From positions 82,986-146,985 of the forward strand of contig CAYXPY010000001.1 of NCBI GenBank assembly GCA_964467345.1: 64,000 bases of DNA, given 5' to 3'. The stretch comes from an uncultured Thermoplasmatales archaeon. GTDB taxonomy: Archaea; Thermoplasmatota; E2; DHVEG-1. Under the pieces are notes generated by a model, which worked only from the letters and a program-made list of their open reading frames with translations, had not been told where the DNA came from and made no database searches. The number at the start of each line of letters is the position of its first letter. Positions within the stretch are counted from its first letter, which is position 1. Both the position numbers and the translations under genes were made by a program. Of the stretch, positions 814-47,467 are shown in pieces.

Positions 814-1491
814 ATGTTTTTCATAGAAATTAACCAGAATTTTGGTGAACAAACAACGCTTCTTGCTCCTTTCATTTTTGTAATCGCTGTCACATGGATC
901 GTCCTTGTCATCTATTCCTACAAGAAATATGGGACTAAAATGACTTTGATGTATTTCTTACCAATAATCATTGCTACGTTTATGATTGAATCCGCAGGTG
1001 TCGCAAGTGGGAGATATTACTATCCAGGGTATATTCTGTATCTTTCGATTGTTGGTGGTGGTGTTCCTTTAATCATCATACTAGCATGGAGCGTAAATCT
1101 ATTCTTATTTATGAATTTGGGAAGACACTTCATCTCAAAAGTATATACAAAACGTAATTTAGTGCAGATTATTTTTATTTCAGCAACGGCGGGGTTATTC
1201 GGTGTGTGTTTAGATTTACTCGAGGACCCTCTAGCTCATTATAACAACTGGTGGATATGGGAAACCTCGTTAGAAGGAATCAAATATTTTGATGTTCCGA
1301 TTCTCAATTTTATCGGTTGGTTTATGTTGATTTTTTTTATGTCTATTGCTACGTTGTTAATCGAACGATCGAAATTTTCAGAGAACAGAAAGGTCCTCCT
1401 TTCAATATCATCATTGGCAATAACTGGGGGGGTTATTTTTGTCGTCCATGGTGCTATTGTAAAATTGTTTGAATTTATCGGTCTTTCTTAA
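814..1491 (+). CDS. Polytopic membrane protein, possibly DUF422/carotenoid-biosynthesis (CruF-like) family. Family assignment is tentative.
   Basis: 225 aa with about 6 hydrophobic helices. Lies directly upstream of a UbiA prenyltransferase, in the arrangement seen for lyeJ-cruF-type clusters. No diagnostic motif verified. Confidence 0.35.
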   Translation: MFFIEINQNFGEQTTLLAPFIFVIAVTWIVLVIYSYKKYGTKMTLMYFLPIIIATFMIESAGVASGRYYYPGYILYLSIVGGGVPLIIILAWSVNLFLFMNLGRHFISKVYTKRNLVQIIFISATAGLFGVCLDLLEDPLAHYNNWWIWETSLEGIKYFDVPILNFIGWFMLIFFMSIATLLIERSKFSENRKVLLSISSLAITGGVIFVVHGAIVKLFEFIGLS

Positions 1492-1551
1492 AAAAATCCC
1501 CCTACTTATAAACCATTAAAGTAATAAAGTAAATCCTGATTATTGGATGAC

Positions 1552-2487
1552 ATGGGTTTAAGGACCTTAACGATTGCCTGGATACGAATGATACGTCCTC
1601 CGATACTTTTTCTCTGTTGTTTTGGAGCGGTCGTCAGTGCATTAAATTGTGCAATATTTATGAATGAGAGTTTATCCTATGTTCAAATCCTCTTTTTGAT
1701 ACTTGCACCAGCATTCCTTTCCACAGGAACAATGTTTCACAATGACATTACAGATTTGGAGTCTGATAAAATCAATAGACCAAAGAAACCGGTTCCTTCG
1801 GGACTATTGAAAGAAAAAACAGTATATTACACAGGGATAGTCCTTATGATTGGATCCATTTTTTTAGGATTGCTGGTGAATTTTTGGGACAAAGGTGAAA
1901 TCAACTGGCAATGTGGTGTTCTGACATTCTTTTTGGTTGTTATCGGTCTGTATTATAATTACTATGGAAAACACCATGGACTTGTAGGCCATATGGCTGT
2001 TGCGATCGGGGTTGGTGCCATACCCTATTGGGGTGCACTGGCAGTTTTTCCAAATCAACCCTTGTTGATGTTACCATTGGCCGTAGCCATCTTCTTCCAG
2101 GAGACCGGGAGGGAGATAATGGTGTGCGCTGGTGATTATATCGGTGATATCAAAGCTGGTTTTAAAACAACCCCTGTACGCCACGGACGAAAACGCTCTA
2201 TGCAGATTGCTTTGCTATTTTATCTCTTATTTATCCCGATATTTCCCTTATCCGCCTATGACTGGGCAGGTCTGAATATGCCACAAGTTTTCGGGACTGT
2301 CTACCTGATCGGCGGCTTCATTTTAGCAATATCTTTAGTTACCACTTGGTTATTGACCTACAATGTCGTCATAAACACTGATGATGAAAAAAAGATATGG
2401 AAATCGTTCGAGCGATACGAAAGAACCGGAACTCGCGTGATGATTATCGTTTTCCAAATTTTTATTCTTCTCGAGGTATTTTACTAA
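1552..2487 (+). CDS. UbiA-family prenyltransferase, DGGGP-synthase-like.
   Basis: Asp-rich motif NDITDLESDKINRPKKPVPSG and a second motif DYIGDIKAG. N-terminus LTIAWIRMIRPP is typical of the UbiA superfamily. First in-frame ATG at 1552; the ORF track begins at a TTG at 1543. Confidence 0.8.
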   Translation: MGLRTLTIAWIRMIRPPILFLCCFGAVVSALNCAIFMNESLSYVQILFLILAPAFLSTGTMFHNDITDLESDKINRPKKPVPSGLLKEKTVYYTGIVLMIGSIFLGLLVNFWDKGEINWQCGVLTFFLVVIGLYYNYYGKHHGLVGHMAVAIGVGAIPYWGALAVFPNQPLLMLPLAVAIFFQETGREIMVCAGDYIGDIKAGFKTTPVRHGRKRSMQIALLFYLLFIPIFPLSAYDWAGLNMPQVFGTVYLIGGFILAISLVTTWLLTYNVVINTDDEKKIWKSFERYERTGTRVMIIVFQIFILLEVFY

Positions 2488-2730
2488 TCAGAATGCATAG
2501 AAATGAGAAAAACCCTAATATATTTTTACTCAACCACACGTCCATGAACAAATTTTTTGCGTACGCAAAAATATCTCGTATTCCAAGTATTGGTGCTCTA
2601 GGGATTGCCCCTGCCATATTATTTTCAATTGCTGAAATACCACCCGTAATTCTGTTGATAGGTATCCTTATCATTTGGTATGTTTTATGTACACCATTAC
2701 TTGGAGAACGAGGATTCAAACAAAGTAAGT

Positions 2731-2750
2731 AAAAAAAAAAAAAAAAAAAA
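2731..2750. repeat. A20 homopolymer immediately upstream of the geranylgeranyl-reductase gene's RBS.
   Basis: Twenty consecutive A on the + strand, followed by GAGGAAACTC and then the ATG. No minus-strand gene ends nearby, so it is not a terminator. Confidence 0.9.
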
Positions 2751-2760
2751 GAGGAAACTC

Positions 2761-3969
2761 ATGACATATGATGTAACGGTCGTTGGGGCAGGTCCTGCAG
2801 GCTCGACAACCGCAAAGTTACTCTCCGAAAAAGGTTTTAAAACCCTGTTAATCGATAAAGAGCAATTTCCTCGGGACAAACCATGTGGTGGAGGATTACC
2901 CCTACGCGTATTACAACGATTCCCTTATGTTGTCGTTGATAAGATTATTGAGGCGTACTCATCAAGCGGGACGGTTTTTTCTCCTTCATTGAAACACCAA
3001 ATTGATATCTGTAAAGACAGGCCAATAATATCTACAATCTTGAGGAAAAAGTTTGATTATGAATTGCTGAATTTCGCACAAAATGCAGGTGCCATTATTC
3101 AACAGCAAACTCTTGTTGATTCCGTCAAAACATCTGATGAAAAGGCGCAAGTGAAACTGCATCAAGGACAAACGATTGATACAGAGATAGTCGTTGGCGC
3201 AGATGGAGTAAACAGCGTGATTGCAAAAACAACGGGACTGCAAAAAACAGGGGCAGAAAAAGGTGTGTGTCTCCTGCAAGAGTTTGAGGTTGATGAAAAT
3301 ATTATGGATGAGTATTTTACCCCGTTTCGACATTGTTATATCCATTCGAGATTCAAATCAATAGGCGGTTATGGATGGGTCTTTCCAAAAAAAAAACATC
3401 TGAACGTAGGGTTTGGTATTGTCCAGGCCTTAAAAAATCTAGAACAGAAACCAAATATCCTGAAATGCTATCAAAGCTATGTCTCGTTGTTAAAAGAAAG
3501 CAATCTTATCCCGCAAGATTTAAAGAAAGCAGAAATCAAAGGCGGAGCACTGCCGACACATCCGTTAGAGAAAACCTATGGACGTCGCCTTCTCCTTGTT
3601 GGTGATGCAGCAGGATTTATCAATCCGTTATCCGGCGAAGGAATCTATTATGCCATGGCTTCAGGGAAAATCGCTGCAGAACTCATAACCGAAGCGTTAG
3701 AGAAAAATGACACAACAGAAGAATTTTTATCAAAATACCAGCGACTGTGGCAAAAAGATTTTGGTAAAGATATTGATCGTATCTTAACGGTTGTGAAAAG
3801 AGGAAGTGTTGAGTACACAGAACGGGTTATTCATATCGTAAGTAAAGATCGCAAACTGACCGATCTCATGATGGGGGTTATCACAGGAGAATTAGGTGTT
3901 GAGGAATACAAATGGAGAATACTCAGAAGGTTTGTTTATAGTTCGTTTAAGCATCGTCTAGGGTTGTAA
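2761..3969 (+). CDS. Geranylgeranyl reductase family flavoprotein (digeranylgeranylglycerophospholipid reductase-like).
   Basis: N-terminal FAD fingerprint MTYDVTVVGAGPAGSTTA, and an LLVGDAAGFINPLSGEGI motif typical of GGR/FixC-like flavoproteins. GGAAA RBS precedes the ATG at 2761. Confidence 0.8.
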   Translation: MTYDVTVVGAGPAGSTTAKLLSEKGFKTLLIDKEQFPRDKPCGGGLPLRVLQRFPYVVVDKIIEAYSSSGTVFSPSLKHQIDICKDRPIISTILRKKFDYELLNFAQNAGAIIQQQTLVDSVKTSDEKAQVKLHQGQTIDTEIVVGADGVNSVIAKTTGLQKTGAEKGVCLLQEFEVDENIMDEYFTPFRHCYIHSRFKSIGGYGWVFPKKKHLNVGFGIVQALKNLEQKPNILKCYQSYVSLLKESNLIPQDLKKAEIKGGALPTHPLEKTYGRRLLLVGDAAGFINPLSGEGIYYAMASGKIAAELITEALEKNDTTEEFLSKYQRLWQKDFGKDIDRILTVVKRGSVEYTERVIHIVSKDRKLTDLMMGVITGELGVEEYKWRILRRFVYSSFKHRLGL

Positions 3970-3989
3970 AAAAAGGAGCAGTGATTGAA

Positions 3990-5381
3990 ATGGACAAAAA
4001 GAAGGTATGTATCATTGGTGCAGGAATAGGTGGTTTAACAGCTGGCGCGTTACTCGTGCAGAAAGGGTTTTCTGTTGATATCTTCGAAAAGGAACAAACC
4101 GTGGGGGGACGAGCGGTTTCTATCGATATGTCTTCTCAGACCAAGGAATCGTATGTGAAGTTATTGGCGCGTTTTAATACACGTATCGTTTTTTCAGAAC
4201 CAAGTCTTGATGAAATTTTTAAAAACAAGATGTTCGAAGGATACACCCTTGACTTAGGGTTCCATATGATTGGGGGAGGAATCATTCAAAAGTTGCGTAC
4301 TATCATCATGGAATACTATGAAAAAATCACTATCTACAAATCAAGGCTATTCGAACAGAAAAACGGTCACTTTGGTTATTTTGTGACCACCGCTGACAAA
4401 ATTTCAATGTTACCCAATATTCTTCGGTTGCTTCTTTCTGGTGAACAAACCATGAAAGAATTAGATTCGGTCTCAATAACAGAGACAATTAAAAAATATG
4501 GGAAGGGCAAGATGAAAGCCGTCTTAGAGGTTAACCCTCGACTCATAAGTACCATCAACAATCTTGATGTGATTTCTACAGGAGAAGTGTTTAGAACACA
4601 AAAAGACATGAGACTTCGGGGGGTGAACTACCCAAAGGACGGGTTGTTAAAAATATCAAAAACAATCGCTGAGTATATCCAAAACAATGGCGGGAGAATT
4701 CATCTGAATAGCCCTGTTTCACAAATTGTTATAAAGAACAATAAGGCAGAGGGCGTTGTAGTCAAAGATAAAACACTCTTTTTTGATTGTGTCCTGTCAA
4801 ATATGGTGGTACAAAATCTGTTTACAATCGCTGATGAAACACAATTTCCGTCTCCATATGTGACGATGTTGAAATCCCTTGAGGGAACCGGGAGTCTTTG
4901 TGCGTATTATTCTTTAAAGACCATCAATCCAAGATTGCTGGGAAAGACATTTATTTTTGTTGAAAGAGACATCGGTGTTGATGGAAACGATGCTGCGGGG
5001 ATGATTGATTTCATCGCTTCAAAGGCAGAAACAGGGTTATCGCCCCCCTCGCAGTATTTGATACAGGCATATATCATCTGTACACCCAGGGAGGCAAGGG
5101 ATGAAGCGATGCTTAAAAAACTCAAAGGTGCATTGGATAAGAACCTTGAACGGATCATCCCTGGTTTTCGTTCACAACTTCGTTGGGCTGTGTATCCGAC
5201 GGTATGGCACTTGGATGGCGTTGCAAAGACACTTCATAACACAAAACCTGATATTCAAACACCTGTCGAAAACCTCTATATCATCGGTGATTGTGTCAAA
5301 GCTCCAGGAATCGGTATAAATTGTGCCATTAACTCGGCTCAGATAGTCCAAGAGATGCTTACAATATCAAACCATCAATAA
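3990..5381 (+). CDS. NAD(P)/FAD-dependent oxidoreductase of the phytoene desaturase (CrtI/CrtD)/amine oxidase family.
   Basis: Dinucleotide-binding fold KKVCIIGAGIGGLTAGALLVQKGFSVDIFEKEQTVGGRA. C-terminal IIGDCVKAPGIG is typical of CrtI-like enzymes. ATG at 3990 is 12 nt after GGAG; GTG at 3981 is an alternative start. Confidence 0.65.
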   Translation: MDKKKVCIIGAGIGGLTAGALLVQKGFSVDIFEKEQTVGGRAVSIDMSSQTKESYVKLLARFNTRIVFSEPSLDEIFKNKMFEGYTLDLGFHMIGGGIIQKLRTIIMEYYEKITIYKSRLFEQKNGHFGYFVTTADKISMLPNILRLLLSGEQTMKELDSVSITETIKKYGKGKMKAVLEVNPRLISTINNLDVISTGEVFRTQKDMRLRGVNYPKDGLLKISKTIAEYIQNNGGRIHLNSPVSQIVIKNNKAEGVVVKDKTLFFDCVLSNMVVQNLFTIADETQFPSPYVTMLKSLEGTGSLCAYYSLKTINPRLLGKTFIFVERDIGVDGNDAAGMIDFIASKAETGLSPPSQYLIQAYIICTPREARDEAMLKKLKGALDKNLERIIPGFRSQLRWAVYPTVWHLDGVAKTLHNTKPDIQTPVENLYIIGDCVKAPGIGINCAINSAQIVQEMLTISNHQ

Positions 5382-5383
5382 AA

Positions 5384-5402
5384 TTTTTATTTAATTATTT
5401 TT
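5384..5402 (+). terminator. Oligo-T rich stretch downstream of the CrtI-like gene. Putative archaeal terminator.
   Basis: T5 and T3-5 runs start 3 nt after the TAA stop. Confidence 0.3.
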
Positions 5403-5532
5403 AAAAATAAAAAAATATATATAATGAGTAAGTCCTACTACGGATAATAGTTGCCTTACAGAGAAGTAGAGCAATTAATATAATATCCATCTCCATTCAC
5501 AACAACAAAATACCTCGGTATATGGTGCCGTA

Positions 5533-6498
5533 ATGTCAGTAAAACTAACGATGAAGGAACCGTATATAAAAAACAGATTTCTGTCAAAAAAATTTAGAGG
5601 CTACTTTGATTTGCTCCGCCCGTTTACCTTACTTGCACCCTTCTTTGTCTCGATGTTTATCATGTTCGCAAGCCTCGTTTACAATAACAGGTTTATTGAA
5701 TTCCCGAACTGGTGGATTATCATAGGACAAGCCAGTCTTACCTTAGCGTTTCTAAACGGAGCATCCAATGCCTTAAACCAGGCAACAGATGTAGAATCTG
5801 ATAAAATATCAAAACCGTACCGCCCCATTCCTCGTGGAGTGGTGGAACGCGATGAAGCGCAAAGCATCGCCTACATTCTTTATCTGTTCGCCTTGCTTCG
5901 GGCTGTGACAATCAACACCTGGTTCGGAGTGTTTGTTTTCCTCATTATGTTGTTTACCGTGGTCTATTCTCTACCACCGCGAATGAAACGATTTCTCTTT
6001 GTCAATCAAGTCTGGATAGCAATCCCGCGAGGGTTGTTTGCAGTTCTTGCATCCTGGAGTGTTTTTGGGGATCCGTTTCAGATGGTGCCACTAATAATTG
6101 GTTTTATCGGACTCACCTTCTTCGTAGGAGCAATGACGACAAAAGATATCGTGGATTGTGAAGCGGACCGGAAAACTGGAACCCGGACACTCATTAACAC
6201 CTATGGTATTAAAAAAGCCGCGTTTATCTCATTACCGTTCCTCATCATACCGTTTGCACTCTTCCCGATACTGATTCATTACGAGATAATTGATGCATAC
6301 TTCTTACCTCTTACCATCTTTATAATACCCAGTTTTTTAATCTTTTACCTAATGATCAAACATCATCAAAGCGAAAGCTTAGAAAATGTACAAGCATGGT
6401 CACTGATGTATATCACCTACCTTTTCTATGCAATCGTATTTACTACCCTCATCATATTAGGAGAATTAGGACAACTAGATTTTTTCATACCTATTTAG
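5533..6498 (+). CDS. UbiA-family prenyltransferase, paralog A of a closely related pair.
   Basis: LLRPFTLLAP N-terminus. Motifs NQATDVESDKISKPYRPIPRG and KDIVDCEADRKTGTRT. About 9 TM helices. Confidence 0.8.
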   Translation: MSVKLTMKEPYIKNRFLSKKFRGYFDLLRPFTLLAPFFVSMFIMFASLVYNNRFIEFPNWWIIIGQASLTLAFLNGASNALNQATDVESDKISKPYRPIPRGVVERDEAQSIAYILYLFALLRAVTINTWFGVFVFLIMLFTVVYSLPPRMKRFLFVNQVWIAIPRGLFAVLASWSVFGDPFQMVPLIIGFIGLTFFVGAMTTKDIVDCEADRKTGTRTLINTYGIKKAAFISLPFLIIPFALFPILIHYEIIDAYFLPLTIFIIPSFLIFYLMIKHHQSESLENVQAWSLMYITYLFYAIVFTTLIILGELGQLDFFIPI

Positions 6499-6642: not shown

Positions 6643-9600
6643 ATGCGAAGGTCGTACCTCTCAGTAGTCGGTATACTTCTTCTACTTGCACTTCCAGCGT
6701 TAAGCATGCCGATATCCTCGCAGGATGATACAAGCCTCCTTTGGAACCCCGCGTATAAGGACTGGCCGCATAGACAAGAGCTACAACTTCCCATCCCTAC
6801 AAATGATCCACGGGCTCATTATCAACCAATAGACCTTCGCCACAGGTTTGAAAAATCATGTTGGACTGAAAATGAGAACAATACGTCAATTCGTGTCTCT
6901 TGTTGGCATAAAGAACAATGGCATAATTTAGATTCGCAAATCTATTCTATTTTACAGGAGAACGGTAAGGTCAGTTCTATCACCGAATGCAACATTATTT
7001 TTTTGATCCCTGATTTCGCAGATGGGACAGAACGATACTTCGTGTATTATAGCGATGATAGAACATCCAAACCAAATTACATAGATCACGTTATGCTTGA
7101 AGATGCCAATTATACCTCATCGCCGTTACCTGAGCTTTCAGCCCAAGCAAGATTCTATGGCATCAAACAAGATGGGTTTTGCATCTACGGTGTAGGACAA
7201 GAAGGAACACTTCTCGATAGATCCTGTGCTCAAGTGGTTGTAAAACAAAACAGAGGAACAAAGGAATTCGATATCATTAATTCAGATCAAATCATATCAT
7301 TTGCATTTTCATATTATTACGGGAGTAAAGAAAAAGACGAAAGCGCTTCAGATCAAATTTTTCTCGATAAAAAGATCTTTGTCGACGGAAACCTCATGGT
7401 GGAATTTGGAATAATTAGCGAATCGAAAAAAAAGGATGTTCAGACGACTGCCATTTATCGATATTACTACTGTCCTTGTGAGGATAAACGGATATATGTT
7501 CATGTGAAACATGAAATGCTGAAAGATGCAGCAGTTCAAGGTATTGACAACATCGATGGACGTTTTGGTTCTTTAATATCCTTAAAAGCAAAAAGTGCCG
7601 CGGTCGAATCTTTAAATTTTGGGGAAATACACCCATTCCTTAACTTCTATAGTCATAATGAACGGATCGAGCAATACCAGTTAAATCAGAATCCTTCAAC
7701 AAAAGAACGAGAGTGGATTATCTCCTATAAAAACGACGCAAGCCTTGGATCGGAAGCATGGTTAAGTTATGGCGAGGGAAAGAAAGGAAAATCTAAGGCT
7801 GTTATTTTTTCATCCAATGAAGATATTGTTATCTCAGGAACGGATGAACAAGATGGAGTCCAGATAAAAGTCGCTGAAAAAGAATATCTTAACTTCCTTG
7901 GCACCGAGGTGGACTATGTCTCAATCAATTTCGGAAGACGATCATATAAACCAGGAGGGAGTCATGATGTCACGATACCATCGGATCTTACCGTGCAATT
8001 CGACGCGGAGGTATACGCCACAGATACAGGTGGATATGAAGCAGTACAAAAGGAATCAACGTTTTACAAAGCATTGATAAAATCTCGGAAGCTTTCCGGA
8101 GAGAATCAATTTGAACGAGAACAAAAAAGATACAATATTACTATCATTCCACGATTCGGGGGAACGCGGTTAACGCATCCCCGGCTGTCGAACCGCACGG
8201 GTAGTCTTTTTCCAGTGATGTGGGTTGAGTTGCATCGTGAAGGACAATTAATTGCTCAAGGTGTAGCAGATCGAGTTCTTTTTGTAAGAGCAAGAAAAAC
8301 CTTCCTTGACATACTAGAGGGTGAGTATCTTGTCAAAGTGTTTTTTAAAACTGAACGAAGGAAGGTTTTCACTGGTTCGACTATTGTAATTTTAAATAAA
8401 GATACGAAAGTCAATGTGTTTTGTACTTGGGAAAGAATAATACAATTTACTTTTATTGATGGAAATGGAAACGGAATACCTGGGATCCATGCCTGGTTAA
8501 CAAATAAAGATGGCATGATATTCGATGAAAATGATACAAAAGATGAGGGGGTAGGTATTGTCCGGGCCCCCTACAATGCAAATGAACCGTATTCCCTCCG
8601 AGCAGAATATAAAGGTATCATCATCTATGAATCAGGGCTGCAGAAAAGTCTTAAAAAATTAAATGTAGAGGTAATCGTTAATCTCTATACCTTTGATGTT
8701 ATCATAACAGATAGGCTTAACCTGCCACCAGGCATTGATATCATACCCCTTCTGATAAAATCAAATGGGAACAAAACACAACCATTAACCGCCATTGACC
8801 GGGGAAATGGATTGTTTACTTTTGAGGAACTCCCGAAAGGAGAGTATCATCTTCAAATCAGCTATGGTGAGTTTATTGATACTATCCATATCACGATTCC
8901 TGGTGAAAGCAACGTTATCAGAATGAGTTTTTCTGCAGCTTTTGATTTGACAATCCAATTGTTCGACTCGAAAGGGAATGGGCTCACAAATGACAATATT
9001 GAGTTTGTAATCCTCCGCGATAACAAAACCATAAGTAAAACAAAGGATAAAATTATTACTCTGCCTCCAGCGCACTATAAAATCAATGCCTATTTAGATA
9101 ACAAGCTTATTGGTGTAAAACAAGTTGAACTCATAAGTGATAAACATTTAATGTTGGTAACCACCGTTGAATCACTTTTCCCACTACTTCTTTCACTTCT
9201 GTTATATGTGTTGTTTGCTTTTTTTGTTATACTTACATTGTTAAAAAAATTTTCACTCTCCTCCCTCCTAAAATCTCTTGCAGTTCTCTTTGTTATTTTT
9301 TCGCTGTTCCAACCATGGTGGCTGTTCACCGGATCAAGTGCGAGGCTACCTATAGAAAAGACCACCGCGTTATACATTAACCCAGGAATGATGATAGAAA
9401 CAAAACAATACTATGGGGAATTGACTCTTACATTAGCTGAAATGCCAGAAATCTTCATTATGTTTCTTGCAGCAATGGTACCACTTGCATCATTTGCATG
9501 CATAAGCATAAGTCTCGGAATCATTTTGAAAAGAACACCGAAAAAGAAATATGCGTTTTTTTTAAGTGTGTTTGGAGTTGTTCTCCTTGCCATTCTGCTC

Positions 9601-9825
9601 CCCATGTTTTATGCGGGCACAACAAAATTAATCGAAACAAGCATTGGTGCAGTACAGGGGGAAGGGATGATGATGATCTCGATTGGCTCTGAAGAGGTTT
9701 TACTGAATTCAAGTTGGGGTTTTGCGTCAGGGTTTTATTTTGCTTGCCTGGCGGTCCTAGTAGCCATGATAGCAATAGTTTTAGATATCAAATTGCGGTT
9801 TAAACAGAAGAAAAAATTATTATGA
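6643..9825 (+). CDS. Large exported protein (1060 aa). N-terminal signal peptide, carboxypeptidase-regulatory-like beta-sandwich repeats, and a C-terminal domain of about 5 TM helices.
   Basis: Signal-peptide-like MRRSYLSVVGILLLLALPALSM. Long hydrophilic body with an IDGNGNGIPG-type motif. The last ~250 aa are strongly hydrophobic. Confidence 0.6.
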   Translation: MRRSYLSVVGILLLLALPALSMPISSQDDTSLLWNPAYKDWPHRQELQLPIPTNDPRAHYQPIDLRHRFEKSCWTENENNTSIRVSCWHKEQWHNLDSQIYSILQENGKVSSITECNIIFLIPDFADGTERYFVYYSDDRTSKPNYIDHVMLEDANYTSSPLPELSAQARFYGIKQDGFCIYGVGQEGTLLDRSCAQVVVKQNRGTKEFDIINSDQIISFAFSYYYGSKEKDESASDQIFLDKKIFVDGNLMVEFGIISESKKKDVQTTAIYRYYYCPCEDKRIYVHVKHEMLKDAAVQGIDNIDGRFGSLISLKAKSAAVESLNFGEIHPFLNFYSHNERIEQYQLNQNPSTKEREWIISYKNDASLGSEAWLSYGEGKKGKSKAVIFSSNEDIVISGTDEQDGVQIKVAEKEYLNFLGTEVDYVSINFGRRSYKPGGSHDVTIPSDLTVQFDAEVYATDTGGYEAVQKESTFYKALIKSRKLSGENQFEREQKRYNITIIPRFGGTRLTHPRLSNRTGSLFPVMWVELHREGQLIAQGVADRVLFVRARKTFLDILEGEYLVKVFFKTERRKVFTGSTIVILNKDTKVNVFCTWERIIQFTFIDGNGNGIPGIHAWLTNKDGMIFDENDTKDEGVGIVRAPYNANEPYSLRAEYKGIIIYESGLQKSLKKLNVEVIVNLYTFDVIITDRLNLPPGIDIIPLLIKSNGNKTQPLTAIDRGNGLFTFEELPKGEYHLQISYGEFIDTIHITIPGESNVIRMSFSAAFDLTIQLFDSKGNGLTNDNIEFVILRDNKTISKTKDKIITLPPAHYKINAYLDNKLIGVKQVELISDKHLMLVTTVESLFPLLLSLLLYVLFAFFVILTLLKKFSLSSLLKSLAVLFVIFSLFQPWWLFTGSSARLPIEKTTALYINPGMMIETKQYYGELTLTLAEMPEIFIMFLAAMVPLASFACISISLGIILKRTPKKKYAFFLSVFGVVLLAILLPMFYAGTTKLIETSIGAVQGEGMMMISIGSEEVLLNSSWGFASGFYFACLAVLVAMIAIVLDIKLRFKQKKKLL

Positions 9826-10714
9826 CCGCGAATGAGAGTGCAAACGTAAAATAGGTGGCATACATCAATATCCACGAGGATGTGTTTTCATATCTTTCAT
9901 TTTTGTGGTTGTTCAGCATTAGCCATCCAATAATGATGCTTAAAATACTAAGAAACGAAAGAGGTATGATTTCTGCAGGAATCATATGGAAATGTACCAA
10001 GGGAAGAATCAAGAAAAATGCACCAATCATGAAGAGAAGAGAAAAAAAAGAAGCGCTTTTTAAACCAAACACATTAACCAAGGTTTTAGTTCCTACCGTT
10101 TTATCTGCCTCAGCGTCTAATATGTCCTTTGTGGTTGTACCACCAAAAAGGAATAAAGCTGCAACACAACCGATCGAGAGTGGAAGGATGTCGAAGGGAT
10201 TTCCAAAAACACTCCAGGAAGCGATGATACCGAAGAAACCTCTTGGAATCGCAACCCATAGTTGATTGAGAAACAAGAATTTTTTCATGCGTGGTTTAAT
10301 CGAATACGTAATCGAAAAAAACGCAATAACTGAGATAAAAACAGCGAAGTGGATATTGACAACGCATGACAGAAGGATCGCTACTACATACAAGAACAGA
10401 GAAAATCTGTATGCTTCCTTTGGCGAGACGATTCCCTGCGGAATAGGACGATACGGTTTCGAAAGAGCATCTTCTTTCCAATCTGTTGCTTGATTTAATA
10501 CATTAGAGGCACCATTGAGGAGTGCAAAGCATATACTTGCAGAAAGAATCACCCAAAGGATTGATACAAGAGGAAGATTGGTAACCCCCGAATAAACAAG
10601 GCTGGCAACAATGACGCTGCTGGACACAATCAGCGGTGCCAAAAGGGTAAATGGTCTGAGAAGTTTTAAGTAAACACGTATGTTATGATCCACAACCTCA
10701 CCACAACCAATCAT
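9800..10714 (-). CDS. UbiA-family prenyltransferase, paralog B. Close paralog of 5533..6498.
   Basis: LKLLRPFTLLAP. Motifs NQATDWKEDALSKPYRPIPQG and KDILDAEADKTVGTKT. ATG start at 10714. Convergent with the large exported protein, overlapping it by 26 nt. Confidence 0.8.
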   Translation of the reverse strand: MIGCGEVVDHNIRVYLKLLRPFTLLAPLIVSSSVIVASLVYSGVTNLPLVSILWVILSASICFALLNGASNVLNQATDWKEDALSKPYRPIPQGIVSPKEAYRFSLFLYVVAILLSCVVNIHFAVFISVIAFFSITYSIKPRMKKFLFLNQLWVAIPRGFFGIIASWSVFGNPFDILPLSIGCVAALFLFGGTTTKDILDAEADKTVGTKTLVNVFGLKSASFFSLLFMIGAFFLILPLVHFHMIPAEIIPLSFLSILSIIIGWLMLNNHKNERYENTSSWILMYATYFTFALSFAVIIIFSSV

Positions 10715-17893: not shown

Positions 17894-18655
17894 TTGATTT
17901 TAGCGACTCTGAACATCCTTCTGTTTGTCACCTCTGTAGTATTTATCATTCCAAAGATCACCTGGAAAAAAACGGTCCAGAACTATAAAAAAATACTCTC
18001 ATCTCATATCACCCCGCTGCTGCTCATCATTCTAGTGGTTCTTGTTCATCTCCTGGAAGTTAACATTATCGATCCCTTTACGACCTCGCTCATCGGCCAA
18101 GACTTCACAGCAGCTATAGAATCCATCGAAAACGGGGTGGTGTACTGGTTCTCCCAACATTGGACACCGATGCTTTTGTATTTTTTTGTCTTCATTTACA
18201 TCGGCTTGTACCCATTTCTACTCTGGTTTTCACTCCTCTATTTCTTACTTACCGATGAAAAAAAAGCGATGAAAACATTTGCCTATTGCCTTATTGGAAT
18301 TTATGTTATTGCGTTGCCATTTTATCTGTTCGTACCAATCACAAACGTCTACACCTATTACGGGGGAACTTCAGCACTAGACGTAGCAATCCCTACAGTA
18401 GAACAGTTTTTTTATACAACGACGACAAACAACAACTGTTTCCCTTCACTACACGTCGCAATGTCACTACTCATCGCAAAAACTGCATCCTTTACCAGGA
18501 ACAAAAGATTCATCTACCTAACCTATCTCTGCGCTATTGGCGTTATCTGCGCAGTTATCTATTTAGCTATTCACTGGATAACTGATGTCATCGGAGGACT
18601 ACTCCTTGTATTTGGGGTATTCGCTCTTGTTCACTACATCACAAAGGAGACATAA
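17894..18655 (+). CDS. PAP2-superfamily-like integral membrane protein.
   Basis: Six hydrophobic helices. C-terminal FPSLHVA and HWITDV resemble PAP2 motifs C2/C3. TTG start. Confidence 0.45.
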   Translation: MILATLNILLFVTSVVFIIPKITWKKTVQNYKKILSSHITPLLLIILVVLVHLLEVNIIDPFTTSLIGQDFTAAIESIENGVVYWFSQHWTPMLLYFFVFIYIGLYPFLLWFSLLYFLLTDEKKAMKTFAYCLIGIYVIALPFYLFVPITNVYTYYGGTSALDVAIPTVEQFFYTTTTNNNCFPSLHVAMSLLIAKTASFTRNKRFIYLTYLCAIGVICAVIYLAIHWITDVIGGLLLVFGVFALVHYITKET

Positions 18656-24684: not shown

Positions 24685-27600
24685 TCACGTTTTGAAATCA
24701 ACAATCATTTTGTAGATATAGGGAAGCTGTATTATAAATCTGCTTCCTTTACCAACCTCACTTTCAGCCCAAATCGTTCCATTGTGTTTTTTGATAATTT
24801 CTTTTGATATAAACAACCCAAGACCCGTGCCTTCATTATTACGGTCTTCGCCTGTATATGCTTGATAGAATTTTGTAAAAATTTTTTTGAGTTCATCTTG
24901 GGAAATCCCAATCCCAGTGTCCACAACGGAAATTAAAATATGATTATCTTTCTTTTCAACATCTAAACCGATGAAACCGCAGTCGGTGAATTTAAGGGAA
25001 TTTCCTATAAGGTTTTTTAACACCTGAGATAAACGAATTTTGTCACCAATGATATGGGGTAGTTGCGTTGGGATATTGACCTGGAATTCTAGTTTTTTAT
25101 TGATAATTGCTGGTCTCATGTCCTCGACGATTTCATTGAGGAATTCAACAGGATCTATTTTTTCCATATCGAATCGCATCGTGTCGCTATCAAGTCGTGC
25201 GACATCCAAGATGTCATTGACAAGTTTCAGAAGTCGTTCTGCGTTTCGGAGACTGATTTTCGCCCAATTCCGAATCTTTTCATTGCTTTCATTATCGTGA
25301 ATGATGAGATCCAGGTATCCTTTTATAGGAGTGACAGGTGAGCGAAGTTCATGAGCTGCGATGTTCATGAACTCTGTCTTTAATCGTTCGTTTTTCTTTA
25401 ATTCATCTTCAATTTCTCTCCGTTGGGTGATATCACGGACGGTACAGACAACACCACCGAATTCTGTTTGTTTCGTCAGAGGTGCTATGTTGACTTCGAT
25501 TGGGATAATATCACCATTACCAGATACAAGTTCCAATTCAACGTTCTCAATCTTATCGTTTTTCTTTCGTACATCAATAAAAATTTGTTGGAAGAAATAG
25601 ACTGAATCCTCAAGAAGATAGTTACGAAACGGTGTTGCTAATATCTGACTTTTCCGTCGTCCACATAGTTTTTCAAAAGAAGGATTTACATAGGTAAGCC
25701 GTCCTAGTGAATCTGTCGTAAACACGCCATCAGCAGAAGTTTCAGCAAGGATACGATATTTCTCCTCAGACTTCACAAGTTCTTCCCAGACTTTCTTACG
25801 ATCGGTGATATCCTCGATAGATCCTACGACATATTCAGGTGTATTTATTCCATCGAAAATGATGGTAAAGGTGTCCCGCATCCACCTATAACCTCGTGTT
25901 TTATGTTTGAAGCGGTATTCGATTGATTGAACAGCATTTTCTTTTAATTCATTAGATTTGATTATGTCAAGATGCTGGGTCCATTGAAGAGAATCCTCCG
26001 GATGGATGAATTCTTCTATCTTTTTTATGGGATAAGCGGTCATCTCCTTTGGCCCATATCCTATAACTTTCATTGAAGACGGGCTGACATAATCACAAGT
26101 TTGATTCTTTAAATTAAACTGATAGATCATATCAAGGGAGTTTTCCAAAACCACCTGAAATCTCTTTTCATTGTCACTTGCTGTTTCAACTGCGTTGAAG
26201 TTTTGATTATTATCGATATAGAAACCCATGATTGAAAAAGGTTGAGCCGATTCATTTTTGATCATATTAGCATAAAGCTTCGCCTGAAATGTAGTCCTGT
26301 CTTTTCTCACGCATGTTATCTCACCAATCCACTGCTTCTTCTGGTTCAGTGTCTGGACTATTTCATTAGTTTGTTCTTTCATGGTCCAGAATTTCGTCAC
26401 TGATTTTCCGATGATATCTTTATTGTGAGTATAGCCCCACATTCTGAGAAATGAATCATTTGCATAGGTGATCTTTCCATTCAGGTCAATTAAGGTAATC
26501 GGACAAATTGAGGATGCTATCGCGTCATCTTTTATTTTCATAAGATCTTCATTGTTTTTTCGTTTGGTAATATCAGACAGAACGACAAGATATCCAAAAC
26601 TCTGTTCTTGTTCGTTTAAAAGAGGTGATGCGTAAATGATGCCTCTCCTCTGTTTGTTCTGTTTCGAAACGACATCGATTTCAACAGGCACGGATTTTTT
26701 GACAACTTTACCCTTTAAAAAAATCTTTTTAATCGTTCGTCTAGATTCTTTTGTAAACAAGGGCAAATTATAAAAATTCATCCCTTTTATTTGATAGGGC
26801 GGACAGGTGACCCATTCGGTGATTGTGTTATTTGTATCTACTATCACACCATCATTATCTACGAGAATAATCGCATGTGGAAAAAAGTCGAACATCATGC
26901 GATGAAGGTTTTCCTGTTCCAATAACATGTCTTGTGTTTTTTTATTCTCAGTGATATCCTTTGAGATAACCAAAACCTCATTTATTTGAGAAGTCGAAGC
27001 ATCTTTCACAGGATTAATGGTCCTAGTGAACCAACTCCCATTCCTACTATGTGTATCTTTCAGAGGTAGCTCGTGATCCAATACCCAGGACAGCTTTTCT
27101 GTAAACTCCTTAGTTTCTTCAGGTGAATGAAAATCATGATAGGTTTTTCCTAACACGTCTATCCGCGTACGACCAAGTTGTGACAGGAACGCGTCATTTA
27201 CCATAAGATATCGGCAATTCGCGTCTAAGAGGCATATCGAGTCGTCCGAATATTGAATAATTGATTCGAGATGTTTTTCTTTCCGTTTTTGTTCTGAGAT
27301 ATCTTTTATGATGTACAGATACCCAAGATTTTTTCCATTAACGTTTTTCAAATTACATAAGGAAACCACGGCATCCAGTGTACCTTGGTTTTTCGAAAGT
27401 ATCTTTGTTTGTATTTGGTGCTGGAGACCCATGTGATTTTCTAATTTTCTTTCCAAGGTTGACCATTCATTTGTTGAATGAAGTGAAGCAACTGATTGTA
27501 AATACAGTTCGACATCGGTTTTTTCAAGGAGGGTTTCCGTATAAGCATTCCAGGAGATAATGCGTTTTTGTGTATCTAGAACAAGAATAGCAAGCAGTGA

Positions 27601-27822
27601 GTTTTCAAACGCATTGCGATAGATTACTGAAAGATGCTCAGGACTAAGAGTATTGCATCGTGTTTGAAAAGGTTCTAAAAGGACAGTGGACGTATCTGAA
27701 TTCTCTGTGAAGCGATCATCTGATTTTGCTATCGTCTTACCATTGCGGGAGGTTTTTTCCTGAGAGTTCCTTATCCGTTCTTCCTCTCGTAATATTTTTA
27801 CAATTTCAGGTTCGCTTGTCAT
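24685..27822 (-). CDS. Multi-PAS sensor histidine kinase.
   Basis: HisKA H-box FMNIAAHELRSP. HATPase_c N/G boxes (VVDTGIGI, GTGLGL). Five or more PAS/PAC repeats. The internal ATG (MTSEPEIVKILREEER) is preferred because a paralogous N-terminus occurs in the 52663..54060 protein. Confidence 0.85.
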   Translation of the reverse strand: MTSEPEIVKILREEERIRNSQEKTSRNGKTIAKSDDRFTENSDTSTVLLEPFQTRCNTLSPEHLSVIYRNAFENSLLAILVLDTQKRIISWNAYTETLLEKTDVELYLQSVASLHSTNEWSTLERKLENHMGLQHQIQTKILSKNQGTLDAVVSLCNLKNVNGKNLGYLYIIKDISEQKRKEKHLESIIQYSDDSICLLDANCRYLMVNDAFLSQLGRTRIDVLGKTYHDFHSPEETKEFTEKLSWVLDHELPLKDTHSRNGSWFTRTINPVKDASTSQINEVLVISKDITENKKTQDMLLEQENLHRMMFDFFPHAIILVDNDGVIVDTNNTITEWVTCPPYQIKGMNFYNLPLFTKESRRTIKKIFLKGKVVKKSVPVEIDVVSKQNKQRRGIIYASPLLNEQEQSFGYLVVLSDITKRKNNEDLMKIKDDAIASSICPITLIDLNGKITYANDSFLRMWGYTHNKDIIGKSVTKFWTMKEQTNEIVQTLNQKKQWIGEITCVRKDRTTFQAKLYANMIKNESAQPFSIMGFYIDNNQNFNAVETASDNEKRFQVVLENSLDMIYQFNLKNQTCDYVSPSSMKVIGYGPKEMTAYPIKKIEEFIHPEDSLQWTQHLDIIKSNELKENAVQSIEYRFKHKTRGYRWMRDTFTIIFDGINTPEYVVGSIEDITDRKKVWEELVKSEEKYRILAETSADGVFTTDSLGRLTYVNPSFEKLCGRRKSQILATPFRNYLLEDSVYFFQQIFIDVRKKNDKIENVELELVSGNGDIIPIEVNIAPLTKQTEFGGVVCTVRDITQRREIEDELKKNERLKTEFMNIAAHELRSPVTPIKGYLDLIIHDNESNEKIRNWAKISLRNAERLLKLVNDILDVARLDSDTMRFDMEKIDPVEFLNEIVEDMRPAIINKKLEFQVNIPTQLPHIIGDKIRLSQVLKNLIGNSLKFTDCGFIGLDVEKKDNHILISVVDTGIGISQDELKKIFTKFYQAYTGEDRNNEGTGLGLFISKEIIKKHNGTIWAESEVGKGSRFIIQLPYIYKMIVDFKT

Positions 27823-27904
27823 AATTCCCTTCCGAGGAATACCTGTAAGTATTTTTGCATCCCATTTTTGCATCCCATTTGAAATAAAAAAACCTACTGT
27901 TTGT

Positions 27905-33047: not shown

Positions 33048-33839
33048 GTGAGTGAATTTCGTATCCCTAATATAAAACTTGAAATGCTACGGGAAGAAGA
33101 GGTGGTGTTGAAGACCCAAATCCCCGGGTTTGATGAATTATTTAAAGAAGGGGGCGTTCCGAAGCGAAACGCCATTTTGGTCGCTGGTGGAGCAGGTACC
33201 GGTAAGAGCACATTGTGTAGACAAATCTGTTATAATCTTGTTACGCAGGGTAAGCATTGTATGTATGTGAGTTTCGAGGAGAGTATCGAGAAAATTGAGC
33301 GAAGTATGTCTGCGTTTGGTTGGGATGCGAAAAGATACGTTGATTCAGGGCATTTGCTCATCCAGAAGATTAATCCGTTGGATATTCTTCGAATGAAATT
33401 CGGTTCGGTGAGCGGATCTGGTTCAGCGACAGAGTTATCCTATAAGATTAAACCATTGATTATCCCAAAAGATTTTAATCCAGAGATCATCGTCGTTGAT
33501 TCATTAACCGCTGTTATCTCTGCGTCTATCAGCAAGGAGAAAAACTACCGGGTATATCTCCAGCAGCTGTTTAATTTCTTTGAAGATACCCATGCAACAT
33601 CCTTTTTGATAACAGAGACTGAACCGATTCCGACGAGGTTCAGCGAGACAGGGATTGAAGAATTTTTAGCAGATGGGATCATTGTGTTATATAATCTCCA
33701 GCTTGGTGATTGCCGGCAGAACGCTATTGAGGTGCTGAAGATGCGGTATTCAAATCATCAGAAGAAAATATTTTCGATGGAAATCTACAATAAGGGGATA
33801 AAAGTGTATCCGGACCGACAGATATCATTACCGGTCTAA
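33048..33839 (+). CDS. KaiC-like single-domain RecA-superfamily ATPase, copy 1.
   Basis: IPGFDELFKEGGVPKRNAILVAGGAGTGKSTLCRQ is the KaiC/RadA-paralog signature. GTG start at 33048; ATG at 33084 is plausible. Confidence 0.8.
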   Translation: MSEFRIPNIKLEMLREEEVVLKTQIPGFDELFKEGGVPKRNAILVAGGAGTGKSTLCRQICYNLVTQGKHCMYVSFEESIEKIERSMSAFGWDAKRYVDSGHLLIQKINPLDILRMKFGSVSGSGSATELSYKIKPLIIPKDFNPEIIVVDSLTAVISASISKEKNYRVYLQQLFNFFEDTHATSFLITETEPIPTRFSETGIEEFLADGIIVLYNLQLGDCRQNAIEVLKMRYSNHQKKIFSMEIYNKGIKVYPDRQISLPV

Positions 33840-34063
33840 AGATAGGTAAAGGGTTCTTTTCTGTCACCGATTTTATTAAGGGCATAGGTTGCAAAGATAA
33901 GTTCTATGGTTTTTACTTGCTGTCGTGAAAGGCCGGTGCGGCGCAAGATGATGTTGTCACATTCGTCATAAATTGAGATGGTGCCTGACTCTCTGTTTGA
34001 GATTGCTTTGAGTATTCTGTTGTTTTGCACCCATATCCAGATTTTAATGCCCTTCGTGCTCAT
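33836..34063 (-). CDS. Small protein (75 aa), paralog B of 32568..32822. Divergently paired with KaiC-like gene 2.
   Basis: Homology to paralog A. ATG at 34063. The 3' end overlaps the KaiC-1 stop by 4 nt (convergent). Confidence 0.55.
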   Translation of the reverse strand: MSTKGIKIWIWVQNNRILKAISNRESGTISIYDECDNIILRRTGLSRQQVKTIELIFATYALNKIGDRKEPFTYL

Positions 34064-34233
34064 GTTTTCATTCTCGTGTATCTATGATATATATTTCATT
34101 TAATAAATATATAAATATTTTCATAAATATTAATATACTATAATGAAACCATGTCAATAATCGTCATGCAAACTGGAGTCGAAGATAACAAATTAATTAT
34201 ATATCCACAATTATACAGAGGCGAGGGTGGATC

Positions 34234-34992
34234 ATGGCGCTCATCCAGACTGATACTAAAGTTACAGTGAGTAAAATGGAACGTGTGAAAACAGGTATTA
34301 AAGGACTCGACGAACTAATCTCAGGAGGGCTGCCAAAAGAAAGCATCACCCTTGTCTCAGGACCACCAGGAAGCGGTAAATCTATTTTCTGTTATCAATT
34401 CATTGCCCAAGGTGTCCAAGACGGTGAAAAATGCCTGTATCTTACACTTGATAAGAAAATCGAAGGACTACTCCTGCAAGCCTCAGAGTTGGGACTGAAT
34501 TTCGCACCAGCAATCCAAACCGGACAAGTCAAATTCCTCTTCCTCAATATCAATAAAAAACTCATCTACGAAAGCATGATCAATGAAATCCTCTCAGGCA
34601 ATTATGACCGTATCGTCCTTGACTCGATAACACCCTTATCAGAGATGCCGATTTATATCAACAACCCTGAATTCACCAGCGAGGTCGATAACATCGACCA
34701 TGGAGAAATAACGTCAGGGAACTTCCCAGTCAGACGGCTCCATCTCCATTACATCATGAACGCTTTGGAAACAGCAAAATGCACTGCTGTCGTGACCTCA
34801 GAGCTCCCATCAGGTTCAACACATTACTCCCGTGATGGCCTCTCTGAATTCCTCGCAGACGCAGTAATTATCCTAAGTCTCGACCCGACAATGGACCGCC
34901 GCAAGCTAGCTGTAATGAAAATGCGAAGCACCAAACATACACTGAAGCCACAGAACATAGAAATCGGCAAGGGCGGCATGCAAATAGTCTAA
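34234..34992 (+). CDS. KaiC-like single-domain RecA-superfamily ATPase, copy 2.
   Basis: VKTGIKGLDELISGGLPKESITLVSGPPGSGKSIFCYQF...GEKCLYLTLD matches the KaiC family closely. Confidence 0.85.
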   Translation: MALIQTDTKVTVSKMERVKTGIKGLDELISGGLPKESITLVSGPPGSGKSIFCYQFIAQGVQDGEKCLYLTLDKKIEGLLLQASELGLNFAPAIQTGQVKFLFLNINKKLIYESMINEILSGNYDRIVLDSITPLSEMPIYINNPEFTSEVDNIDHGEITSGNFPVRRLHLHYIMNALETAKCTAVVTSELPSGSTHYSRDGLSEFLADAVIILSLDPTMDRRKLAVMKMRSTKHTLKPQNIEIGKGGMQIV

Positions 34993-34996
34993 GAAC

Positions 34997-35464
34997 ATGT
35001 TCCAATACCGACCACCAAAACAGCTCCGGGCGCTTTTCATTATCCATTATGCACCCCTGCTGCTGATTATCCTCATAGGACCCCTTACTGCGTATTACGG
35101 TGTCTGGGAGATCCCTTTACCGAAACTTATGACGATCATTTCAGGATGTATCGTTTTTCTCCTTGGCACGTATGTCTATTTCAAATGGGAAATCTTCTGG
35201 CATAAAACATACAAAGGACAGCTGGTGACTGATGGGATCTTTCAACAGATCAGACATCCCCATTACACCTCCATCCTCATCGTTGGGTTCGGCCTAGCAT
35301 TGTTTTTCTATTCCCTCTTTGCATTTGCCATCTCTGTGATCGCCATCCCATTAATGATATGGAGTATAATCGATGAAGAAAAGGTACTGATGAAACAGTA
35401 TGGGGAGCCTTATAAGGAATATATGAAAAAGGTGCCCTGGAGAATCATCCCAAGGATCTTCTGA
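34997..35464 (+). CDS. Isoprenylcysteine carboxyl methyltransferase/phospholipid methyltransferase family membrane protein.
   Basis: C-terminal IRHPHYTSILIVGFG...EEKVLMKQYGEPYKEY ICMT/PEMT signature. Four-nt gap after KaiC-2 suggests co-transcription. Confidence 0.65.
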   Translation: MFQYRPPKQLRALFIIHYAPLLLIILIGPLTAYYGVWEIPLPKLMTIISGCIVFLLGTYVYFKWEIFWHKTYKGQLVTDGIFQQIRHPHYTSILIVGFGLALFFYSLFAFAISVIAIPLMIWSIIDEEKVLMKQYGEPYKEYMKKVPWRIIPRIF

Positions 35465-41103: not shown

Positions 41104-41221
41104 GTCGGGGTGGCTCAGCCTGGTCAGAGCGCCTGACTCATAAGCTCAGCTCAAAGGTTCGTCTGAAGCGTAGTTGCGCTAAGATATCAGGAGGCCGCGG
41201 GTTCAACTCCCGCCCCCGACA
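41104..41221 (+). tRNA. tRNA-Met (anticodon CAT; elongator or Ile2-type) with a ~43-nt intron at the canonical 37/38 position.
   Basis: Acceptor GTCGGGG/CCCCGAC, D-arm GCTC-AGCCTGGTCA-GAGC, anticodon stem CCTGA...TCAGG interrupted after CTCATA by 41143..41185, T-arm GCGGG-TTCAACT-CCCGC. G1:C72 argues against an initiator. Confidence 0.8.
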
Positions 41222-47053: not shown

Positions 47054-47467
47054 TTATCCCTCAAACTCATCTGTTATTTTCTGTAACGCCTGGATGAGAC
47101 CATCTAATTGTTTGATTATTTTTAAAGCCTCTATTTTACTTCCTTTCAGTTTTATCCTGTTTTTAAGAAGGGCCATGGCAGTTCCAATCTTCCCTTCAAA
47201 AATATCCCGATATACTCCATAGTTCCCGGTGATGACAAAAACAGCATCCTTCCCGGTAAGTATACCCTCCGTGTGAAGAATAAAATCATGTAACCTGCCA
47301 TCGTTGAGTTCCAGATAGAAACTCATCATCGTATCCTTGGGAGGGACATGTTCGATGATGCCAAGTAACGATGTTGTCAAGTTCCCAAGATCTTCCACAG
47401 GATCAAGATTCTCATCGATATATCTCTTCCCGTATTCTATCCATTCATCTGACAGAAATTTTACCAT
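47054..47467 (-). CDS. SCP2 sterol-carrier-like domain protein.
   Basis: 137 aa. C-terminal GKIGTAMALLKNRIKLKGSKIEALKI resembles the SCP2 signature. Confidence 0.55.
   Translation of the reverse strand: MVKFLSDEWIEYGKRYIDENLDPVEDLGNLTTSLLGIIEHVPPKDTMMSFYLELNDGRLHDFILHTEGILTGKDAVFVITGNYGVYRDIFEGKIGTAMALLKNRIKLKGSKIEALKIIKQLDGLIQALQKITDEFEG

Follow-up and report, generated by a model that had tools for sequence, protein, structure and literature searches.

We describe a conserved group of genes in a 64,000-nucleotide stretch of DNA from an uncultured Thermoplasmatales archaeon (contig CAYXPY010000001.1 of GenBank assembly GCA_964467345.1, positions 82,986 to 146,985, forward strand), hereafter referred to as the window. 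The group combines a PF04240 (Caroten_synth/CruF-family) membrane protein with several UbiA prenyltransferases, a geranylgeranyl-reductase-family (GGR) flavoprotein and a CrtI/CrtD-superfamily flavoprotein, and it is a functional unit. The family assignments are clear, the catalytic motifs are intact and the genes are tightly clustered, an arrangement which is conserved between genomes. The reading that we put first, with a probability of about 0.4, is that the operon modifies a long polyisoprenoid at its terminal isoprene units, in the way the haloarchaeal crtD-lyeJ-cruF genes do, the acceptor being a C40 carotenoid. The resemblance to the bacterioruberin genes is distant, and either a carotenoid or the archaeon's own ether lipids could equally be the substrate.

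The gene inventory was built from a listing of the open reading frames (ORFs) together with Pfam and NCBIfam scans of the window proteins. Where two starts are given below, the first opens the longer ORF and the second is the start called on identical public contigs. The PF04240 gene (814-1491, + strand), encoding a putative isoprene double-bond hydratase with six transmembrane (TM) segments, is preceded by the gene of a 109-residue protein with three TM segments and no family match (sTM; 480-809, +), which is part of the unit. The gap between the stop of sTM and the PF04240 start is 4 bp. UbiA1 (1543 or 1588 to 2487, +), a DGGGPS-like UbiA prenyltransferase, follows the PF04240 gene after 97 bp, and the gene of the CrtI/CrtD-superfamily protein (3981 or 3990 to 5381, +), which binds flavin adenine dinucleotide (FAD), lies 1.5 kb further downstream. 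PF04240, UbiA and the CrtI/CrtD-like flavoprotein are thus encoded on the same strand and all inside 4.6 kb. Between UbiA1 and the CrtI-like gene are a relic of a further prenyltransferase, UbiA5 (2544-2732, +), and the GGR gene (2680 or 2761 to 3969, +; 402 residues in the public contigs). UbiA2 (5533 or 5611 to 6498, +) comes next, followed by the gene of a 1060-residue membrane-anchored protein (6643-9825, +) and, convergent with the latter and overlapping it by 26 bp, UbiA3 (9800-10714, - strand). The intergenic gaps of 4-20 bp in the cluster, found at sTM/PF04240 and at GGR/CrtI-like, suggest that sTM is co-transcribed with the PF04240 gene, and GGR with its CrtI-like neighbour. An initial annotation of this DNA had named the membrane protein at 814-1491, UbiA1, GGR, the CrtI-like protein and UbiA2, quoted a motif in UbiA1 and placed a third UbiA about 3 kb further on, and the ORF listing and the family scans recover all of them, the third UbiA being UbiA3. 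It had also counted six genes in a row: the gene group is real, with five intact genes, and the sixth is the UbiA5 relic.

The same annotation likened the layout to the haloarchaeal lyeJ-cruF-crtD operons. In Haloarcula japonica, c0507 (crtI/crtD), c0506 (lyeJ) and c0505 (cruF) are co-transcribed and convert lycopene to bacterioruberin (Yang 2015; PMC11946383; PMC9258230). Both archaeal modules hold PF04240, UbiA and a CrtI/CrtD-superfamily flavoprotein, encoded co-directionally and with tight spacing, so that the likeness stands for the three families within 4.6 kb. It does not extend to the gene order, which differs, nor to sequence kinship beyond the superfamily level (the flavoprotein scores 65.5 bits on the CrtID model, where the cut-off is 640). 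Furthermore, the cluster adds to the H. japonica set the GGR gene, two to four more UbiAs, the three-TM gene and the 1060-residue membrane protein, and in contrast to H. japonica its host is a non-halophilic sediment archaeon, with a window lacking a crtB or brp/blh context. We regard the cluster as a greatly enlarged and strongly diverged relative of the bacterioruberin module.

Conservation of the cluster was evaluated by scanning one genome per GTDB species (185,579 species) and mapping the window proteins by BLAST onto the resulting 25 loci. The PF04240 gene was found in only these 25 species, all of them Thermoplasmatota-type metagenome-assembled genomes (MAGs) from sediments or springs, including Thermoplasmatales archaeon SM1-50 of the Thermoprofundales (MBG-D, for Marine Benthic Group D), whose PF04240 protein is 80% identical. 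The window itself holds housekeeping genes of archaeal type and a tRNA with a presumed intron, and the host lineage is Thermoprofundales. An origin in Marine Group II, suspected from the 'Thermoplasmatota' names and the many metagenome relatives of the PF04240 protein, was rejected, as the genome scan met the gene in sediment MAGs such as SM1-50. The common gene order is sTM, PF04240, UbiA1, UbiA5, GGR, CrtI-like, UbiA2, 1060-residue protein and UbiA3 (the last on the opposite strand), and about 20 genomes at species level share this synteny. UbiA1 adjoins PF04240 in 21 of the 25 loci, and wherever the downstream sequence extends for 5 kb or more, in 16 loci, the CrtI-like gene is there. GGR was found in 14 of the 25 and is lacking from four of the 16 complete ones; UbiA3 occurs in nine. 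The gene of the 1060-residue protein stands beside UbiA2 and UbiA3 in nine related genomes, including the rearranged locus L021. This protein has an N-terminal hydrophobic anchor and about five C-terminal TM segments, without any Pfam match above cut-off, and its membership in the pathway, suggested by the synteny, is uncertain.

It could be argued that unrelated housekeeping isoprenoid genes merely lie side by side here and share no pathway, as any archaeon should possess a GGR and a UbiA resembling DGGGPS, and the 1060-residue protein has no evident link to isoprenoids. We consider this highly improbable. Synteny of five to eight genes holds down to 46-50% identity of the PF04240 protein, the gaps are 4-20 bp, and the genes remain together although the flanking genes are wholly different between the two main clades of loci and although the cluster has been inverted or shuffled in L021 and L028. 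A cluster which is conserved in spite of different flanks and rearrangements shows that its genes are functionally linked and not neighbours by chance.

The initial annotation had proposed a membrane protein in the position of CruF at 814-1491, and the product does match Pfam PF04240 with 68.3 bits (cut-off 25; E 1.2e-18) over residues 23-203. The subfamily is isolated: a phmmer search against 1.84 billion representatives gave just 17 matches below 1e-10, and the next relatives are short forms of about 200 residues from uncultured archaea, with 28-37% identity. More than 120 close relatives are found in metagenomes, some of them labelled 'Thermoplasmatota archaeon', and a 75%-identical homologue carries the Joint Genome Institute (JGI) name 'bisanhydrobacterioruberin hydratase'. 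Neither profile searches from distant PF04240 representatives nor tblastn against plasmids reached a haloarchaeal CruF. PF04240 adjoins a UbiA gene in two of the four outgroup loci, L032 (an uncultured archaeon) and L033 (Asgard Ca. Sigynarchaeum); these minimal pairs, at 7098-8591 in L032 and 7833-9523 in L033, are without a CrtI-like gene. Additionally, PF04240 genes named 'carotenoid biosynthesis protein' by the annotation pipeline PGAP are present on a Klebsiella pneumoniae plasmid (L040) and a Vibrio europaeus plasmid (L041). The hosts of these two are non-pigmented, and the genes have TetR/LysR regulators adjacent to them and no carotenoid genes nearby.

The gene of sTM is located directly upstream of PF04240 in 19 of the 25 related genomes, with 31-82% identity, and sTM is probably a partner subunit of the PF04240 protein. 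It has no match in Pfam or NCBIfam, also when 12 orthologues were scanned at E<=10. Small ORFs upstream of PF04240 are likewise found in the outgroup loci L033, L034 and L035, and in L033 an ORF of 55 residues abuts the PF04240 start. We also considered sTM as a small lycopene-cyclase subunit of the CrtYc/Yd or CrtYe/Yf type and rejected this, as the scan of the 12 orthologues gave it no Pfam support.

For the prenyltransferases and flavoproteins, scores in bits are given with the cut-off of the model after a slash. UbiA1, which contains the motif DKINRPKKPVPSG, matches PF01040 with 105 bits, PRK12884 with 125/269 and two DGGGPS models with 84.2/353 and 82.6/296; its best match in PDB is MjDGGGPS (6m31), E 1.4e-11. 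UbiA2 resembles DGGGPS, ChlG and homogentisate phytyltransferase (HPT), with 119.5 bits on PF01040, 116/269 on PRK12884, 81/296 on DGGGPS, 72 on HPT and 71 on BchG, and 6m31 is again the best PDB match (E 1.3e-12). Its motif KDxxDxEADxxxGTxTL is conserved, and orthologues with 58-95% identity are found in 15 loci. UbiA3, a paralogue with 47% identity to UbiA2, scores 120.5 bits on PF01040, 93/269 on PRK12884 and 75/296 on DGGGPS, and has kept the motifs. The Asp-rich motifs NDxxDxxxD/NQxxDxxxD and DxxxD are retained in all UbiA orthologue groups, for UbiA1 in 20 orthologues. As a positive control, a PGAP-named haloarchaeal (Haladaptatus) DGGGPS scored 356/296 on PRK12882 and 206 on PRK12884. 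No UbiA of the window passes a DGGGPS, MenA or UbiA equivalog cut-off in NCBIfam, the DGGGPS models being PRK12882, PRK12883 and PRK12872.1-1. These scores give no support to placing all UbiAs among the characterised DGGGPS or MenA enzymes, which would have told against the initial annotation. Its description of the genes as DGGGPS plus GGR, the canonical ether-lipid pair, is not supported either, with 83 bits for UbiA1 where the true haloarchaeal DGGGPS reaches 356. The best UbiA matches in the plasmid tblastn were PGAP-named DGGGPS; this search yielded only haloarchaeal DGGGPS paralogues, ChlG, EboC and the bacterial PF04240 genes. Each hidden Markov model (HMM) built from an orthologue group scores haloarchaeal DGGGPS above the other paralogue groups, UbiA1 giving the highest score (53 bits), and these sequence comparisons suggest that the UbiA set radiated, star-like, from an ancestor resembling DGGGPS.

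Two further UbiAs stand apart from the others: UbiA4 and UbiA5, which are 27% identical to each other. UbiA5 in the window is a relic of 62 codons with an internal deletion, in which N-terminal residues are joined in frame to C-terminal residues: by BLASTP it corresponds to residues 1-44 (E 7e-11) and 284-334 (E 8e-12) of the 334-residue intact UbiA5 of L011. Of the 25 related genomes, 18 have an intact gene at this place, with UbiA1 on one side and GGR on the other. It has been lost in the window, in L007 with the same relic and in L015 with a different one, and in L006 a gene of an IS200-type Y1 transposase occupies the UbiA5 site. UbiA4 (55747-56775, -) lies outside the main cluster in the same window and has no PDB match; a Pterin_bind (dihydropteroate-synthase-like) gene is found near it at 57648-58481 (-). 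Both proteins carry the JGI name '4-hydroxybenzoate polyprenyltransferase' and match the ubiA_proteo model weakly (45-63 bits), which would fit a pathway for a prenylated aromatic or quinone-type cofactor, where the UbiAs would prenylate a head group, GGR would act in a MenJ-like manner and the flavoprotein and PF04240 would modify the side chain. The 104 bits of GGR on the MenJ model, the full-length match of UbiA2 to HPT (72 bits) and a ubiA-annotated gene in a transcript list for an MBG-D MAG are consistent with such a pathway. We nevertheless find it improbable: no locus has head-group genes (Mqn, Men, Ubi or a methyltransferase) in or beside the cluster, UbiA5 is deleted here and in two relatives which have kept the rest of the cluster, and all of the scores are far under the cut-offs.

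The GGR-family protein passes the family model TIGR02032 with 226.8 bits (cut-off 158.8) and contains the motifs DKPCGGG and YGWVFPx7GFG, following the motif definition of PMC10821996. Its best PDB match, over the full length, is the digeranylgeranylglycerophospholipid reductase of Thermoplasma acidophilum (3oz2; E 5.7e-30). It stays below every equivalog cut-off: DGGGPL_reductase 126/580, the Thermoplasmatales model 116/780 and BchP-ChlP 186/343. The CrtI/CrtD-like flavoprotein has an FAD motif (GxGxxG), IIGAGIGGLTAG, at residues 9-20, and a C-terminal FAD-binding segment, YIIGDCVKAPGIGI, which aligns with 3ka7 and 4rep. It matches Pfam Amino_oxidase with 57.5 bits. The best PDB match is 3ka7, an uncharacterised oxidoreductase of Methanosarcina mazei (E 2.6e-19), followed by the gamma-carotene desaturase 4rep (E 1.7e-13); CrtI (4dgk) gives 22.7 bits and L-amino-acid oxidases about 29 bits. 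A search of the plasmids with the flavoprotein gave no crtI at E<=1e-3. CrtI/CrtD-type proteins thus give it higher scores than amine oxidases do, which speaks against a generic amine oxidase. It is a remote member of the CrtI superfamily, and a candidate desaturase, hydratase or isomerase.

The chemistry that we favour for the operon is of the LyeJ/CruF type: a prenyl cation would alkylate a terminal isoprene double bond, water would be added to this unit, the flavoprotein would contribute redox or hydration steps, and GGR would saturate part of the product. A carotenoid is only slightly more probable than ether lipids as the substrate of this chemistry. For the carotenoid reading we infer every catalytic step, substrate and product. 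A UbiA-type enzyme would ionise a prenyl diphosphate on its Asp-rich motifs and alkylate the terminal C=C of the acceptor; UbiA1 is the most likely enzyme for this, since it is the constant neighbour of PF04240. Water may then quench the tertiary carbocation left by the alkylation, and the PF04240 protein with its three-TM partner would turn those isopropylidene double bonds that remain into tertiary alcohols by hydration. The CrtI/CrtD-like flavoprotein may desaturate, or else hydrate or isomerise, neighbouring positions, and the GGR-family enzyme may saturate selected double bonds. UbiA2 and UbiA3, as DGGGPS-like paralogues, would have housekeeping roles or add further prenyl groups. As the acceptor we take a C40 carotenoid, for whose supply crt genes have been reported elsewhere in the order, and the predicted product would be a hydroxylated, possibly partly saturated C45/C50 'membrane rivet' resembling bacterioruberin.

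A C40 carotenoid is proposed because of the exact triad of families, the KEGG-type annotation and the crt genes reported in the order. The JGI name of the PF04240 homologue, the recurrence of PF04240-UbiA pairs in the outgroups and the match of the flavoprotein to gamma-carotene desaturase also speak for it. According to Liu et al. 2022 (PMC9585477), Thermoprofundales subgroup E, which occurs mostly in surface sediments, gained a heliorhodopsin flanked by crtB, crtD, crtZ, cruA and crtU; some genomes hold complete bacterioruberin gene sets, the CruF inferred in this subgroup is new to Thermoplasmatota, and a 'BchG', plausibly our UbiA2 or UbiA3, is among the gained genes. The initial annotation regarded carotenoid-like chemistry as not expected in this lineage, a claim which is weakened, since carotenoid genes had already been reported in Thermoprofundales. 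That survey concerns the same order and in all likelihood the same PF04240 family, with the carotenoid reading resting on KEGG-type annotation, and its main text does not cover operon architecture, UbiA multiplicity, GGR, the three-TM partner or a biochemical test. The carotenoid reading is therefore already published at the annotation level, but the operon architecture is not.

Several results weigh against a carotenoid. No protein of the cluster passes an NCBIfam equivalog cut-off: the PF04240 protein has no NCBIfam match whatever, and the flavoprotein is under the cut-offs of crtI_fam (66.2/238), CrtID (65.5/640), desat_CrtD (61.7/550) and hydcarot_desat_CrtD (57/500). The closest characterised relatives of the UbiAs are DGGGPS and then chlorophyll synthase, in a comparison that did not contain LyeJ or CrtEb. 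The bacterioruberin module has nothing that corresponds to GGR or to the two to four additional UbiAs. Elsewhere in the 64-kb window no crtB, crtI, crtY, rhodopsin, GGGPS or CarS gene was found, and none of these is a recurring neighbour in the 25 loci. Many of the hosts are from anoxic sediments. Bacterial PF04240 genes, on plasmids and in other genomes, are without carotenoid genes nearby; since PF04240 is common in such settings, membership of the family does not by itself point to a carotenoid substrate. Finally, homologues of carotenoid enzymes that act on archaeal ether lipids are known, namely MA0127 and Hgs.

These two are the precedents for a possible second reading, which we hold tentatively, that the locus serves ether-lipid synthesis or tailoring and that its products are hydroxylated or otherwise modified archaeol or glycerol dialkyl glycerol tetraether (GDGT) lipids. 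The CrtI homologue MA0127 of Methanosarcina makes hydroxyarchaeol (Mori 2015, as cited in PMC10821996 and PMC12777485), and the AttH/CrtC-like hydratase Hgs makes hydroxylated GDGT, OH-GDGT (bioRxiv 10.1101/2025.10.20.683597). In anaerobic archaea, a CrtI-family protein and a carotenoid-type hydratase thus add water to the isoprenoid chains of ether lipids. Applied to the cluster, UbiA1 or UbiA2 would be the divergent DGGGP synthase of the lineage and GGR the lipid saturase, an MA0127-type flavoprotein together with PF04240 and sTM would hydrate geranylgeranyl chains, and the extra UbiAs would attach other prenyl groups. Apart from the two precedents, this is proposed because every UbiA resembles DGGGPS, GGR is of the lipid type, the flavoprotein is like that of a methanogen, no crt genes lie nearby and the habitats are anoxic. 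MjDGGGPS (for UbiA1-3, at E 1e-11 to 1e-12) and the T. acidophilum GGR are the nearest characterised relatives, with which the cluster proteins have the Asp-rich motifs and the GGR motifs (YxWxFP...GxG and Cys) in common; the preference of the plasmid search and of the orthologue HMMs for DGGGPS agrees with this, as do the M. mazei relative of the flavoprotein and the PF04240-UbiA pair of the Asgard archaeon, which has no crt genes near it.

Against ether lipids, the UbiA and GGR scores lie between a quarter and a third of what the equivalog models require. All UbiAs are far under those of DGGGPS (at most 84 against 296-353), so that a canonical DGGGPS may lie elsewhere in the genome. In place of a single UbiA, three to five paralogues occur, and they share their cluster with PF04240 and a CrtI-like protein; GGR is absent from a quarter of the complete loci. 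The characterised PF04240 enzymes all act on carotenoids, and PF04240 differs from AttH/CrtC in fold and family. No paper that we found mentions 3KA7, which is at most a candidate orthologue of MA0127. Unlike the MA0127 and Hgs systems, the cluster has no Ted-type radical SAM desaturase near it. Furthermore, an occurrence in 25 of 185,579 GTDB species suits an accessory pathway better than the core synthesis of lipids.

A third outcome, in which the operon would leave carotenoids aside altogether, we think rather unlikely. The product would be an undescribed class of archaeol or GDGT whose terminal isoprene units are prenyl-extended and/or hydrated by LyeJ/CruF-type chemistry, or else a C50 membrane-spanning rivet of the 'bacterioruberane' type, saturated by GGR.

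Some other genes of the window may be related to lipids. A PAP2 phosphatase is encoded at 17894-18655 (+), a 155-residue membrane methyltransferase of the PEMT/ICMT family at 34997-35464 (+), and a 687-residue FAD_binding_4 protein at 47461-49524 (-), followed by a 556-residue protein without a family match. A pair of KaiC-like ATPase genes is located at 33048-34992 (+), and multi-PAS proteins are encoded at 24685-27873 (-) and 52663-54060 (-), one of which is a histidine kinase. Rfam places a tRNA of 118 nt at 41104-41221 (+), presumably interrupted by an intron, which ARAGORN did not report.

Thermoprofundales, which are uncultured, belong to the archaea most often met in sediments worldwide. 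With its six to eight genes the operon is compact enough to be tested, and it pairs PF04240 with UbiA, as is seen in several archaeal lineages. If the product is a carotenoid of the C50 type, chemistry like that of bacterioruberin would reach past the halophiles into anoxic and low-light sediments, a setting which would suggest a structural role in stiffening the membrane rather than photoprotection. If the operon tailors ether lipids, new biomarkers would result, and hydroxylated archaeols and GDGTs could become less clean as markers of methanogens, anaerobic methanotrophic archaea (ANME) or Thaumarchaeota. An undescribed lipid class or a 'bacterioruberane'-type rivet would be a new sedimentary biomarker in its own right, and would make the operon the third independent case in which carotenoid-type enzymes have been recruited to the tailoring of ether lipids.

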